Shown: positions 24,001 through 27,000 of the stretch, piece by piece
Numbering within the stretch: position 1 is the first letter of the stretch
Layout of the letters: the number at the start of each line of letters is the position of its first letter
Source: Waddliaceae bacterium
GTDB lineage: Bacteria; Chlamydiota; Chlamydiia; Chlamydiales; Waddliaceae
Reading direction: 5' to 3'
DNA length: 64,000 nucleotides
NCBI GenBank assembly: GCA_963724325.1
Contig: CAVRUH010000001.1
Coordinates: forward strand, 416,001 to 480,000
Position numbers: made by a program

Positions 24001-27000
24001 TCGTGCTGAATCACTGCCAGATGCCACACCCGTAGTAAAATCAATACCATTCCAATCAAAACACAATTTAGAATCCGATTCGCCTTAAGAGGAATATCTA
24101 GAGCGGCAATTTTGAGTCGATCATTTTTTTGCATTCTTTCATAGCCATTGGTCTATTGGAGATCAGGCCATCTACACCCATCTTAACCAATTGTACCATT
24201 TCCTTTTCTTCGTTTACTGTCCATACCCAAATTTTTTTTCCCTGCTCATGCACCATTTGTACTAGATCTGGAGAGGCTATTGTCCATTTTAATCCATAGT
24301 ACTCTGGATTGTTCCTAAAGTGGTGATCAATCGTTTCCACAGATTGTGAGAGAGCAATAATGGGTTGTTGCGGATCAATTTCTCTCACACACTCTAGAAC
24401 CTTCGATGAAAAACTCCCGACCAAAATGGGTTTTTCACTTTTTTGCCTGCTCTTGATCACCTGCATGACAGCATCAGCAAGTCTTTTTTCGGATGCTGTT
24501 CCCGTTTTTATTTCGATCATCATCCCAACTTTTTCGTGTGCCGCCTCGAAAACTTCTTCGAGTGTCGGCACCGATTCCCCTCGGAAATCATGGTGGAACA
24601 AAGATCCTGCATCATAATATTTTAACTCATTTAGGGTCAAACAATTAACCCCGCATGGAGAGGCAACGTTCACATTTCTGCCCAATTGCACATCGTGGAG
24701 TACCACAGGAACGCCATCTTTTGTCAAATGAACATCAAACTCAATGTAATCGACTCCAATGTCTATTGCCTGTCTAAACGATGCCAGGGTGTTTTCAGGC
24801 GCGCTGCATGGCGACCCCCTATGCCCGACAATAGTAACAGCGTTTAACATTGTAGCCGAACAAAAAAATGTAAAATAAAATAGTAGTGTTTTCATGACCA
24901 CAAGTTAGCTAAGTTGGAAATTTAATGCGACAAATGAATAACATCTTGCGGAATCTCCAAAATAACAGGATATGCAAGATCGCAAGCGGCACCCCATCAA
25001 TACTCAATTGGCAAAATTTGTTTTGAGAAAATGTTTGATAGAAGTACAATCGGTAAATATTCTTCTCGAAACAAGGCTCAGAACATTGTCAAAATGCATC
25101 AAAGTCCAAAAAATTGTACTCGAATATCACCCTCAGAGGAATCAAAGAGCAAAATTAATCAAGGGCTTAGCGATATTGCTCAACAGCACAATATCAATTC
25201 GGTCATCCATCAATCAGGAGCTCCATCATGAAGAAAGCCGCAATATATGCCAGAGTCTCCTCACAGAAGCAAAAAGAAGATGAAACGATCGAAAGTCAAG
25301 AATTGGTTCTTCGAGAATTTGGACTCAAAGAAGGATATCAAATTCCAGAAACGTGGCTTTTTCTTGATAACGGTATAAGTGGTCAAAGTCTTCAAAGACC
25401 TGCTTTAGATGATTTACGAGATTTGATACGAACAGAGTCTGTCGACGCGATTTTGATCTATGCACCAGATAGGTTAGCCAGAAATTATCCTCATCAACTT
25501 ATTTTGTTAGATGAATTTCGACGATGTGGAGTGAAGGTTCTTTTCATTAGAAATGTTCCTCAAGGTGACACTCCTGAAGCAATAATGTTTACTCATTTTC
25601 AGGGGATTTTTGCTGAATATGAAAGAGCATTAATATTAGATCGATCTCGTCGAGGTACTATTCATAAAGCAAAAAGCGGAGATCCAGCTATTCTTCCTAA
25701 GCTACCATATGGCTATCAGAGGATAAAAAATGAACGTCAAACGGTGATTGAAATCGTTGAAACAGACGCGAATGTTGTAAGAAAAATATTTTATTTATAT
25801 GTTCATGAGAGGCTTTCATTAAATGGAATTTGTCGAAGGTTGAGCGAGGTCCAAATTAAAAGCCCAAAAGGAAATTCCTATTGGTTTCCAGCAACCATCT
25901 TAGGGATATTAAAAAATAAGGCTTATATAGGCACTGCAGCCTATGGTAAATCAGAAAAGTATGAGGGTATAGATAAAATAAGGCATTATAAAGGCTTAAG
26001 ACGGCTGAAGCCAAAAAATCCACGAAAAAAAACTAATGAAGACTCTTGGTACGAGATAAATATTCCAATTATAATTAGTGAAAGTGATTTTGAAACAGCA
26101 CAGGAATATATAAATAAAAATAAAGAATTAGCCTTAAGAAATACCAAAGAACCTTCCTTGCTTCAAGGATTAATCACGTGCGGCGAATGTGGTTGTCAAT
26201 TTTATAAAAGAATGAGAAGATATAAGGGAATAAGTAAAAATTATTATCATTGTCGAAGCCATTCGGATAATAAAATACCAAAATGTTCTAATGGATATAT
26301 ACAGCAGGATGAGCTCGATGATTTGGTCTATAATGAAATAATTCAAATGCTTCAAAATCCATTTATGTTGCAGGAAGAGTTTAAAAGAAGAGAAAAGGAA
26401 AGCGGAAATATCGAGGAAATCGAGAGGCAGGAAATTTCGATGAGAAAAGAATTAGAAAAGCTTATAAAAGAACGAGAGCGACTTTTAGATGCATATCAAA
26501 GTGGTTTATTAGATTTAACTTCTCTAAGTCAAAGAGCCCAGGGGTTAGAAAAAAGAAGAGGCGAACTTGAGAACGAGAAAAAGGAACGATTAAATTTAAA
26601 ACTTATGAAAGAAATAGGATCCGGTTGGGAGCATGCTTTTGAAAGTATTTTAGAAAGAGTTAAAAAATCGGCTCCAGATTTGCCATTCAATGAGAAGCAA
26701 AAACTAGTGCGTTTAATAGTTGAAAAAATTATCATAACCAAAGGCGAGGTAAAAATCATGCATTGCATATCACCGAAAATGCTTTATGAAAATTGCCAAT
26801 TGAGTAGTGATGGGGCAGGATACGAATGATACATGTAACTTCTTACCCTGCTTTATAATAAAAAGTAATTGATATTATCTTCCTATAATCCTTCATATCC
26901 TGCCGCTTGCGATCCTTCATATCCTGTTTTCCTTTTACAGGGAGGTTAACAAGGTATCAATCTCTTGTTATTTCTCCAAAATAACAGGATATGCAAGATC

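Follow-up and report, generated by a model that had tools for sequence, protein, structure and literature searches.

The region analysed is a window of 64,000 nt from a Waddliaceae bacterium (assembly GCA_963724325.1, contig CAVRUH010000001.1, positions 416,001-480,000 of the forward strand). Coordinates without a prefix are positions in this window, and those with the prefix C1, C5 or C7 count along contigs of the 11-contig assembly. A compact element with two overlapping genes interrupts one copy of a dispersed 41-bp repeat, and the locus comprises the following features.

24964-24991, + strand: left part of the interrupted repeat (putative attB left arm, with the crossover CA at 24990-24991), differing from the consensus 41-mer at 1 of its first 28 nt.
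24992-26817, + strand: element proper, 1,826 bp, one CA dinucleotide (26816-26817) included.
24992-25018, + strand: left terminal inverted repeat, one putative attP half-site; CAATTGGCA core at 25005-25013.
25023-25050, + strand: putative promoter of the sigma-70 type (TTGAGA-16 nt-TACAAT), agreeing with the consensus at 10 of 12 positions.
25086-25283, + strand: small gene with a TTG start for a conserved 65-aa protein that carries the motif EYHPQRNQRAKLIKGLAILL, a candidate directionality or other accessory factor.
25228-26829, + strand: large serine recombinase ORF, 533 aa, assigned with Pfam; AGGAG at 25216-25220.
26789-26815, + strand: right terminal inverted repeat, the other putative attP half-site; within the recombinase CDS, where it encodes ...ENCQLSSDG.
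26818-26830, + strand: right part of the interrupted repeat (putative attB right arm, GGATACGAATGAT), differing from the consensus at 2 of its last 13 nt.
26888-26928, - strand: uninterrupted 41-bp repeat, inverted, partner of the occupied copy.
26983-27023, + strand: uninterrupted 41-bp repeat, a paralogous empty site, forming a long hairpin with 26888-26928.

A BLAST search of the assembly with window 24959-26830 returned seven full-length matches, 99.5-100% identical over 1861-1872 bp. With the repeat halves included, they lie at C1:23993-25864(+), 25982-27853(+), 27894-29765(-) and 440959-442830(+) and at C7:112436-114307(-), 230228-232101(-) and 257343-259214(-), exactly where the earlier note had placed seven copies at least 99.5% identical. 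The copies and junctions described there stand; the length of 1,872 bp given for the element counts both repeat halves and is to be reduced to 1,826 bp. The element begins CCCCATCAATAC... and finishes ...AGTGATGGGGCA, and the exact length and the same ends were found in all seven copies. Each 30-nt element end occurred exactly seven times in the assembly, in which neither degraded copies nor solo element ends were detected. Three sites vary across the copies, five of which are identical. The copies are spread over two contigs (C1:24 kb, C1:441 kb, C7:112 kb, C7:230 kb and C7:257 kb), three of them clustered within 6 kb in one repeat array (C1:24026-29732). The GC content of the element is 35.0% versus 40.1% for the genome. 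In operational terms it has the features of an insertion sequence (IS), being shorter than about 2.5 kb, bounded by inverted repeats, present in seven copies and equipped only with genes for its own movement (two).

The 533-aa product was rightly called a large serine recombinase (LSR), as all three LSR domains were found by Pfam: Resolvase (PF00239, E 5.5e-32, residues 4-152), Recombinase (PF07508, 1.3e-17) and Zn_ribbon_recom (PF13408, 2.8e-13). Across 17 aligned sequences, R9, S11 and S12 of the catalytic motif YARVSS were at least 90% conserved, and R82, R85, C318, C321, C342 and C353 were invariant. The closest solved relative is SprA/YokA of SPbeta (PDB 9dxh/9dxd, E 8.3e-19, residues 48-504); inside the aligned stretch, residues ~380-480 show a heptad-like pattern with many E, K and L, a possible counterpart of the coiled-coil motif that LSRs carry in the zinc-ribbon domain. 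TnpX was matched by the catalytic domain alone (E 9.1e-4), as was the NCBIfam IS607 model NF033518 (37.2 bits versus a cut-off of 110), and there was no match to DUF4368 at E ≤0.01. Because the right attP arm lies inside its 3' end, the element supplies no stop codon for the recombinase gene. Codon 530 (GCA, 26815-26817) is the last inside the element, and the final 3 codons and the stop are supplied by the host repeat; depending on the flank, the recombinase is 533, 534, 548 or 550 aa long. The C-terminal peptide xxCQLxxDG was conserved in the recombinase alignment.

In all seven copies the left junction passes from ...GATCGC(A/T)AGCGGCA to CCCCATCAATACTCAATTGGCAAAATTT and the right junction from ...AAAATTGCCAATTGAGTAGTGATGGGGCA to GGAT..., with the dinucleotide CA at both. 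Insertion at one and the same position of the 41-bp repeat, as proposed earlier, was thus seen in every copy: each is inserted after ...GATCGCAAGCGGCA, in a single orientation relative to the repeat. When the flanks were joined in silico, they gave the 41-mer with 0, 0, 1, 2, 3, 4 and 4 mismatches. The 27-bp inverted-repeat ends around CA were confirmed, the two arms matching at 24 of 27 positions. At the locus, attL would consist of the left part of the repeat (24964-24991) and the left end of the element, and attR of the right end of the element and the right part of the repeat (26818-26830). A near-palindromic attP, a differing attB and a central dinucleotide common to attL and attR appear to make up the layout of a serine integrase, and a matched attP/attB/attL/attR set can, as had been suggested, be read straight from the sequence. 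Because one base position and one orientation are used in 7/7 copies, the dispersed repeat appears to behave as a natural multi-copy attB. The Pfam domains and the seven junctions thereby favour the idea put forward in the earlier note, that of an IS-like multi-copy element whose only enzyme is an LSR and which would use the repeat as attB. The attB showed no obvious dyad symmetry, and no clear match to a zinc-ribbon motif shifted 5 bp towards the centre (the model of PMC3783163) was found in it by eye.

The sequence ATCGCAAGCGGCAGGATA occurs exactly 114 times in the genome. The 18-nt repeat core was found 123 times exactly, 188 times with at most 1 mismatch and 202 times with at most 2, in good agreement with the about 190 uninterrupted repeats reported before; the only congener (G001) has 225 cores, against 0 for a reversed-pattern control. 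The whole 41-mer occurs 8 times exactly and 121 times with at most 3 mismatches. Together the 202 cores make up far less than 1% of the 2.37 Mb. A repeat unit consists of two 15-nt direct sub-repeats flanking CGCAAGCGG. Among 129 neighbouring pairs less than 400 bp apart, 58 were '+ -', with a modal spacing of 93 bp, and 59 were '- +', with modal spacings of 58 and 71 bp. The repeat is REP/REPIN-like in being short, of high copy number and arranged in inverted pairs and arrays. The inverted pair at 26880-27025 folds at -40.5 kcal/mol (z -10.7) and a single unit at -1 kcal/mol (z +1.07), which rules out a REP-type palindromic hairpin in the single unit. The label 'REP-like' given to the target therefore fails for the unit; judged by its arrangement and predicted folding, the repeat works as inverted pairs in a REPIN- or MITE-like way. 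A RAYT was considered as driver of the repeat and rejected, as the one Y1_Tnp match in the genome (C5:207478-207774) is not flanked by repeats, the nearest lying ~12 kb away.

The element does not stand alone: it belongs to a family with more than 100 relatives in metagenomes. Among the matches listed there were 119 relatives with recombinases 40-90% identical, and for about 65 of these 119 the longest contig was at most 2.2 kb, i.e. element-sized. The family of the element (recombinase at least 44% identical, small gene present, 1.81-1.86 kb) occurs mainly in metagenome genomes labelled Chlamydiae, one of which has 7 loci with more than 98% mutual identity. The ends of 17 elements were compared, with an inner arm of 13 nt assumed. 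The 17 relatives kept the CAAT(T/A)G core as well as the inner arm of 13 nt, 16 of the 17 carried an identical dinucleotide at both ends, circle sizes were 1,811-1,859 bp, and the right inverted repeat again lay inside the 3' end of the recombinase gene. In one related metagenome-assembled genome (MAG; G041), the motif common to the left flanks occurs only 7 times; five occurrences show at most 1 mismatch and finish with the TGCA of the junction. As far as these flanks tell, the motif shows sequence-specific insertion and not the use of an abundant repeat. Because it occurs only 7 times, targeting of an abundant repeat may not extend to the whole family. No description of the element family was found in a literature search for LSR-only IS, chlamydial serine-recombinase elements and REP-targeting LSRs, which covered mostly non-subscription sources and not ISfinder.

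The repeats and relatives bear on the possibility that the recombinase is a host-domesticated enzyme inverting or deleting DNA between dispersed repeats, the 'element' being its gene with binding sites. Repeat identity between the two species is 89-97%, compared with ~68% for orthologous genes at the DNA level, so some process would keep the repeats uniform, and the NCBIfam model closest to the recombinase is the developmental excisase XisF (118.9 bits, below the cut-off of 375). However, the congener keeps its 225 repeats with no match to the recombinase of the element, and among 40 related genomes the best recombinase matches were 23-35% identical. Seven near-identical copies with inverted-repeat ends of their own and a lower GC content fit a selfish element, and the relatives assemble as element-sized contigs. 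We consider domestication extremely unlikely.

The clustering of copies would instead fit a single ancient insertion into a repeat, with the further copies arising passively through segmental duplication, gene conversion or homologous recombination among the arrays. Repeat arrays favour such exchanges, 3/7 copies share one array and a span of 6 kb, no circle was seen, and all 3 variants are common to two adjoining copies, C1:26015-27840 and C1:27907-29732. These same two copies, however, sit in the two arms of a single inverted pair of repeats, both in the canonical, correctly mirrored register, which conversion from a single donor would not readily produce. The common sequence does not extend beyond the 41-bp repeat, and the outer flanks differ in all seven copies, which lie in distant places on two contigs; unrelated genomes, too, hold several copies of this architecture, between other flanks. 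Passive copying as the whole explanation is thus very unlikely, although copy number could also have grown by recombination among repeat arrays, as the clustered copies at C1:24026-29732 allow.

We therefore favour, with a probability of roughly three in four, an IS-like element of 1,826 bp that is moved by conservative site-specific recombination and not by DDE transposition. It would have four parts: a promoter-like site at the left end, the gene for a 65-aa helical protein, the recombinase gene and two 27-bp terminal arms, which jointly would form a near-palindromic attP around the CA dinucleotide. Recombinase dimers at attL and attR would cut at CA, rotate and reseal, so that excision would yield a 1,826-bp circle and restore an intact 41-bp repeat. 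The attP of the circle would then recombine with any of the ~190 intact repeats as attB. Insertion would have a fixed orientation because CA is not palindromic. In the integrated state the recombinase ORF ends in host DNA, and in the circle it would run on for 79 further codons.

We infer this mobility from the copies and their junctions, because neither a circle nor a polymorphism between strains was seen. The 28-mer of a circle or tandem junction had 0 occurrences in the assembly, and no circle junction was found in the contigs of 4 (Logan) out of 15 public runs listed. In one run, a single joint skipping 1,826 bp (1 contig, shorter side 24 nt) was rejected as a sign of excision, since any intact repeat gives the same joint. 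The unique left flank was without cover in 3 of the 4 runs, the one with the joint among them; the fourth, which may come from the source sample, spans the left junction and differs from it nowhere. A pair of strains with an empty and a filled site was not found; the congener region matching window 23002-24826 lacks a repeat core at up to 3 mismatches. At the GDPD gene, at the one of the seven insertion sites that was compared, synteny with the congener breaks.

The 103-aa ORF previously described (24972-25283) is present, and its frame holds a real gene. Its 5' end was miscalled: the ATG lies in the flanking host repeat, outside the element, and in copy C1:27907-29732 a TAG stands at that position in the same frame. 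The gene in this frame encodes 65 aa and overlaps the start of the recombinase gene by 56 nt in the +2 frame in the window. Its frame was open in 19/19 relatives, with an overlap of 14-36 codons, and the motif EYxPQRNQxxKLIxGLAILL was conserved in the 19. The start codon was located 16 aa upstream of the motif in 13/19 and 13 aa upstream in 4/19, and the codon-position entropy was 0.91/0.57/1.43. Because of the coding substitution pattern, the conserved start position and the conserved motif, we judge the 65-aa frame to be a real coding gene. A profile search with the small protein gave 24 representatives, mostly of 55-78 aa. Upstream of the recombinase gene and on the same strand, the small gene was found in 29 of 107 loci compared, these being the loci of the family of the element (recombinase identity to that of the window 44-73%); in all 29 it adjoins and overlaps the recombinase gene.

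The small protein has a basic N-terminus and, in the window, a non-ATG start. Searches of Pfam, PHROGs, NCBIfam and the Atlas, a profile search of PDB and a Foldseek search of PDB related it to no known family, those of recombination directionality factors (RDFs) included. No PDB chain matched its sequence at E <1, the best Atlas score (0.76) was below the useful range, and no DNA-binding fold or helix-turn-helix family was detected. Its structure model is helical, with moderate confidence (pLDDT 67). RDFs are diverse, so that absent family similarity is compatible with such a role. A complex prediction with the recombinase, made with alignments from this analysis, scored 0.53 versus 0.01 for the best of 3 controls, and lends weak support to the pairing. 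Of 157 solved complexes 116 reached the mark applied, as did 2 of 215 mismatched pairs, and scores of at most 0.60 among those passing came from 18 of the 157 solved complexes and both mismatched pairs. The runs agreed in at least 70% of contacts and the partner had a pLDDT of at least 54. The predictor may have passed the pair through having learnt a comparable LSR-RDF complex, SprA-SprB, which has been solved. The directionality-factor role suggested in the earlier note thus remains plausible and weakly favoured by the predicted complex, with no match to an RDF or any other known family. In the proposed cycle, the small protein would most likely bind the recombinase and set or tune its direction as RDFs do, and would otherwise regulate expression.

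It is possible, if doubtful, that the recombinase of a mobile element excises and inserts alone, as reported for TnpX and TndX, and that the 65-aa protein is a regulator of expression or copy number. It could act as a repressor at the left-end promoter and TTTGATAG spacer, or its gene could serve the recombinase as a leader for translational coupling. Titles among the references of PMC3783163 indicate that neither TnpX nor TndX requires an RDF. The small gene, with its non-ATG start and the basic N-terminus of its product, lies directly 3' of a conserved promoter-like site and overlaps the recombinase start in 19/19 relatives, and the protein resembles no known RDF. However, no DNA-binding fold or helix-turn-helix family was detected in the protein, the predicted complex speaks weakly for contact with the recombinase, and the latter is not of the TnpX/TndX type, having no DUF4368 and sharing the catalytic domain alone with TnpX. 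Activity of the promoter candidate at 25023-25050 is predicted from its sequence. Promoter-like sites in the region were not above shuffles (8 found versus 7.3 expected), and both hexamers and the TTTGATAG spacer hold their position in the aligned left ends of the relatives.

Returning to the favoured site-specific recombination, we tentatively suggest that the element may represent a distinct, self-contained class of 'serine IS' with a built-in state sensor, in which a circle-specific recombinase tail and the 65-aa directionality factor would jointly decide between excision and integration. Because the attP arm lies inside the recombinase 3' end, an integrated copy and a circle would make different recombinases, in the window one of 533 aa with a host-encoded tail and one of 609 aa whose frame runs round the circle back to its own start. 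Dual coding is proposed for the left end, with the circle-specific tail in one frame and the directionality factor in another, and the ~200 repeat copies would offer safe, orientation-defined landing sites. Rebuilt circles had a length of 2 mod 3 in 17/17 elements, and the recombinase ORF continued 42-79 codons past the circle junction in 16/17. Over the 17 loci together, the left region held 40 and 32 stops in the frames that are used and 151 in the remaining one, compared with ~99 per frame in shuffles. The wrap-round peptide had a codon-position entropy of 0.81/0.97/1.17 and was poorly conserved outside the inverted-repeat and promoter DNA.

Tn4451/Tn4453 (TnpX) and Tn5397 (TndX), which are several kb or more in size and carry cargo and other genes, also use a large serine recombinase as 'transposase'. 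The pathway proposed for the window element would be theirs too, with several targets per genome, a 2-bp crossover and a circle route. In contrast, the window element is 1.83 kb long, without cargo or DUF4368, its target is one specific repeat of ~40 bp and not a short degenerate motif, and its family has a dedicated small gene and an att arm within the recombinase ORF. In PMC10083194, 63% of the multi-targeting LSR clade are given as carrying DUF4368. The PLE satellites of Vibrio cholerae integrate by a large serine recombinase into V. cholerae repeats (VCRs) as a multi-copy attB, according to PMC7145576. As in PLE, one genome offers many equivalent attB landing sites. PLE, as a phage satellite, has many genes, is usually present once per cell and takes its directionality factor from a helper phage, whereas the window element is IS-sized, has seven copies and carries a candidate accessory gene of its own.

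ISPsy8, ISPa11, ISPpu9/10, ISRm22 and others insert specifically into REP/BIME, as described in PMC1525189. Like these, the window element is small, multi-copy and specific for short dispersed intergenic repeats; unlike them, it has an LSR, would follow attP × attB chemistry and duplicates only the crossover dinucleotide. The transposases of the REP/BIME-targeting IS are of the DDE or IS110 type. TnpA of IS607, a small serine recombinase, has its DNA-binding domain at the N-terminus and shows minimal target specificity, and IS607 lacks terminal inverted repeats (PMC4058570, PMC6188088). The window element is also IS-sized and would be moved by a serine recombinase, presumably by way of a circle, and differs in its C-terminal DNA-binding domains, 27-bp inverted repeats and high target specificity. 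SprA (YokA) of SPbeta with its RDF SprB (YotN) is similar in being the closest solved recombinase with a small partner protein, and a SprA-YotN fusion has been solved, to judge by PDB molecule names; unlike the window recombinase, SprA is a prophage integrase with a single attB. Other serine integrases have RDFs of roughly 60-70 aa.

Because precedents exist for repeat-using LSRs and for REP-targeting IS, the element is a variant, and to call it a new kind of LSR transposon was an overstatement. If our inference holds, it would be the smallest kind of autonomous LSR-driven element, with two overlapping genes in 1.8 kb and an attachment site that forms part of the recombinase gene. The IS classification would gain a large-serine-recombinase family beside IS607, to which the serine-recombinase IS in the literature found belong, and some of the repeat-linked genome dynamics of environmental chlamydia-like bacteria would be accounted for. 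For the window element and dozens of diverged relatives, att sets and a compact candidate directionality factor are provided; such att sets and RDFs are raw material sought for serine-integrase genome engineering (PMC10083194). The many natural attB copies would also display the attB variation that the enzyme tolerates, the occupied sites being off the consensus at 0-4 of 41 positions.

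A BLAST search of the 2.37-Mb, 11-contig assembly of the source genome with window 24959-26830 gave seven matches over the full length, 99.5-100% identical, where the earlier note had located seven near-identical copies. The remaining matches were of about 30 nt each, to the flanking repeat only. The copies are real, but the length of 1,872 bp first assigned to the element takes in both halves of the target repeat, as read from the junctions. Without these halves, the element extends from CCCCATCAATAC... to ...AGTGATGGGGCA (window 24992-26817), and its length is exactly 1,826 bp in 7/7 copies. 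Only three positions vary (one synonymous change, H341Y and G445C), and all three variants are common to the adjacent copies C1:26015-27840 and C1:27907-29732; the other five copies are identical to each other. Each 30-nt element end is present exactly seven times, and the assembly therefore holds no solo ends or element fragments. The GC content is 35.0% in the element versus 40.1% in the genome. The element carries the following features.

Window 25023-25050: candidate promoter-like site, TTGAGA-16-TACAAT
Window 25086-25283: small gene, TTG start, 65 aa
Window 25228-26829: large serine recombinase (LSR) ORF, 533 aa, with Resolvase, Recombinase and Zn_ribbon_recom domains

In all seven copies the left junction reads ...GATCGC[A/T]AGCGGCA and the right junction GGAT..., in a single orientation relative to the repeat. 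When the flanks were joined in silico, they gave the 41-mer consensus with 0, 0, 1, 2, 3, 4 and 4 mismatches. The conserved block of the repeat extends about 26 nt to the left and 13 nt to the right of CA, a normal size for the attB of a serine integrase. Our recount returned the repeat numbers previously obtained for this genome.

Occurrences of the target repeat in the source genome
18-mer ATCGCAAGCGGCAGGATA, 0 mismatches: 114
18-nt core GATCGCAAGCGGCAGGAT, 0 mismatches: 123
18-nt core, up to 1 mismatch: 188
18-nt core, up to 2 mismatches: 202
41-mer, 0 mismatches: 8
41-mer, up to 3 mismatches: 121

The core was found in 4 of 41 related genomes, with 188 copies in the source genome, 225 in its only congener (the number reported before), 10 in G006 and 5, all of a one-mismatch variant, in G018; the reversed pattern, used as a control, was absent from all 41. 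The term 'REP-like' used in the earlier note holds for the dispersal of the repeat and for the folding of inverted pairs (-40.5 kcal/mol, z -10.7), but a single unit forms no hairpin (-1 kcal/mol, z +1.07). Among 129 neighbour pairs orientation alternates, with 58 '+ -' pairs (mode 93 bp) and 59 '- +' pairs (modes 58 and 71 bp). Since the units alternate in orientation and fold as pairs and not singly, the repeat behaves as a REPIN- or MITE-like family in arrays. Copies C1:26015 and C1:27907 fill both arms of one inverted repeat pair, each in canonical register, with a third copy at a distance of two repeat units.

Repeat matches in the congener are 89-97% identical, versus about 68% for orthologous genes at the DNA level, which suggests that the uniformity of the repeat is maintained through mobility, conversion or function. 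Comparison of the two genomes and a check of the single Y1 transposase gene of the source genome (G000:C5:207478-207774) revealed no driver; the Y1 gene has no flanking repeats and was rejected.

Conservative site-specific transposition is the most likely mechanism of the element. Recombination of attL with attR at CA would release a 1,826-bp circle and restore the repeat, and the attP of the circle could then recombine with any intact repeat copy. Because CA is non-palindromic, the orientation of insertion would be fixed. The proposal of an insertion-sequence-like mobile LSR element agrees with seven copies at one repeat position and in one orientation; from these we infer mobility, with excision, the circle and re-integration. 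Anatomy, specificity and conservation are shown by the sequences themselves. Neither a circle nor an empty/filled site pair was seen in the assembly, in the contigs of four public sequencing runs or in the congener. Low-depth contigs of three runs from one study of soil metagenomes (X1, X2 and X4) contained pieces of 181-1,461 nt matching the element with 0-2 differences and left the unique left flank of the window uncovered. In these samples the same element may reside in different genomic surroundings or in different strains.

The recombinase ATG is preceded by AGGAG at 7 nt, and the catalytic motif and four zinc-ribbon cysteines are conserved in an alignment of 17 sequences. The closest solved protein is SprA/YokA of SPbeta (8.3e-19); the nearest NCBIfam models, XisF and CcrB, scored far under their cut-offs. 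The final codons of the recombinase hold the right inverted repeat, and the C-terminal peptide encoded there, ...ENCQLSSDG, is conserved across the element family. The element contains no stop codon for this ORF, which terminates in host DNA and gives 533, 534, 548 or 550 aa according to the flank. A second, unrelated serine recombinase gene elsewhere in the source genome (C11:65487-66173, within a 305-aa open frame) is 29% identical over the catalytic and recombinase domains.

The 103-aa ORF that the earlier note took for a directionality factor is miscalled at its start, because the ATG sits in the host repeat and one copy has an in-frame TAG there. The frame itself codes, for a conserved gene of 65 aa. 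The +2 frame stays open in 19/19 family members, for 49-102 codons upstream of the recombinase start and for 14-36 codons past it, and the translations have the common motif EYxPQRNQxxKLIxGLAILL. A start codon, usually following AAGG or AGGG, precedes the motif by 16 aa in 13/19 relatives and by 13 aa in 4/19. In the core of the gene, entropies by codon position were 0.91/0.57/1.43 and pairwise differences 1204/759/1811, a substitution pattern that marks the frame as a protein apparently under purifying selection. A profile of the small gene searched against 1.84 billion cluster representatives matched 24 proteins with E-values of 0.001 or lower, 11 of them at 1e-10 or lower. Most of the 24 are 55-78 aa long and 12/24 start at profile position 1, so other gene callers found the same small gene. 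The profile also matched 29/107 fetched loci (19 of the 29 had been used to build it), in every case upstream, with the recombinase on the same strand. Recombinase identity to the window is 44-73% in these 29 loci, which make up this family.

No known relative of the small protein was found in Pfam, PHROGs, NCBIfam, PDB sequences, a Foldseek search of PDB, or the Atlas, and its AlphaFold model is all-helical (pLDDT 67). Complex prediction of the recombinase with the small protein, using custom alignments, scored 0.53, versus 0.01 for the best of three controls; runs agreed in at least 70% of contacts and small-protein pLDDT was at least 54. The mark was reached by 116/157 solved complexes and 2/215 mismatched pairs, those reaching it at 0.60 or under being 18 of the solved complexes and both mismatched pairs. 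A solved SprA-SprB complex exists, and memory may contribute to the score. The prediction lends weak support to the pairing. The small protein is the leading candidate for a partner of the recombinase in directionality or regulation.

The adjoining AAA_14/DUF4143 ATPase ORF (window 26991-28328, 445 aa) also has its called ATG within a copy of the 41-bp repeat and begins with the same repeat-encoded MQDRKR (N-terminus MQDRKRQD...). As with the 103-aa ORF, the start codon contributed by the repeat is either spurious or an alternative one.

Both hexamers of the promoter-like site and the TTTGATAG spacer hold their position in the aligned left ends of relatives; the region as a whole holds no excess of such sites (8 found versus 7.3 expected), and promoter activity is putative. 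The small gene starts 91, 94, 97, 106 or 109 nt from the left end, which is 1 mod 3 in 17/17 elements.

Seventeen elements were scored under the window geometry, assuming a 13-nt inner arm beside a CAAT(T/A)G core. The dinucleotide outside the arms was the same at both ends in 16/17 (CA, GT, TG, GA, TC, TA or AA), and circles of 1,811-1,859 bp were deduced. All 17 rebuilt circles have lengths of 2 mod 3, and the recombinase ORF continues past the junction for 42-79 codons in 16/17 (19 codons in L058). In the window circle it would reach 609 aa, ending at a TGA that overlaps its own ATG. Summed over 17 loci, left-region stop codons numbered 40 in this wrap frame, 32 in the small-gene frame and 151 in the third, with about 99 per frame in shuffles. 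The wrap frame is kept open. Its tail peptide is poorly conserved with a weak codon pattern (entropy 0.81/0.97/1.17), which argues against a functional tail. The wrap and small-gene frames are both depleted in stops; the third, which is the recombinase frame extended 5' of the ATG (window 24992-25227 and the left ends of 16 relatives), is enriched in them.

LSR-driven transposition has precedents in the transposons of TnpX and TndX. Published sources describe multi-targeting LSRs (PMC10083194), a PLE integrase inserting into V. cholerae repeats (PMC7145576), IS elements targeting REP sequences (PMC1525189) and serine-recombinase IS elements of the IS607 type (PMC4058570, PMC6188088). With several pieces known, 'a new kind of minimal LSR transposon' claims too much. 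The domain search found no DUF4368 in the recombinase, whereas this domain is typical of the TndX-like multi-targeting clade (PMC10083194). In literature outside ISfinder and most subscription journals, no description was found of an element that combines IS size, LSR-driven movement, an own conserved small gene, an att arm in the recombinase ORF and the use of a long dispersed repeat for attB.

A recombinase protein search listed 119 relatives at 40-90% identity. In about 65 of them the longest contig did not exceed 2.2 kb; a repeat assembling on its own is expected to give such contigs. Named genomes were mostly Chlamydiae or Chlamydiales MAGs, one with seven loci at >98% mutual identity. 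A clade at 31-34% recombinase identity occurs in Actinomycetota MAGs, and the small-gene profile did not detect the gene in its fetched loci. This clade (L029-L033, L038 and L063-L093, from Actinomycetota-labelled MAGs and soil contigs) is multi-copy within MAGs, and at least one member, L029, has terminal inverted repeats of 25 bp with a span of 1,996 bp; IS-like LSR elements may extend beyond the chlamydial family. In the related multi-copy MAG G041, four copies have at least 24 nt of common left flank and the others have related palindromic flanks. These flanks show sequence-specific insertion; an abundant target repeat was seen in the source genome, not in G041. In the G041 copies L020 (5589-5633), L023 and L024, but not in L028 or L021, the right end is followed by a GC-rich hairpin module of some 45 bp (GCCCAGG...CCTGGGC), after which the flanks diverge. 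This module may represent either a longer form of the element end or a second small repeat inserted there.
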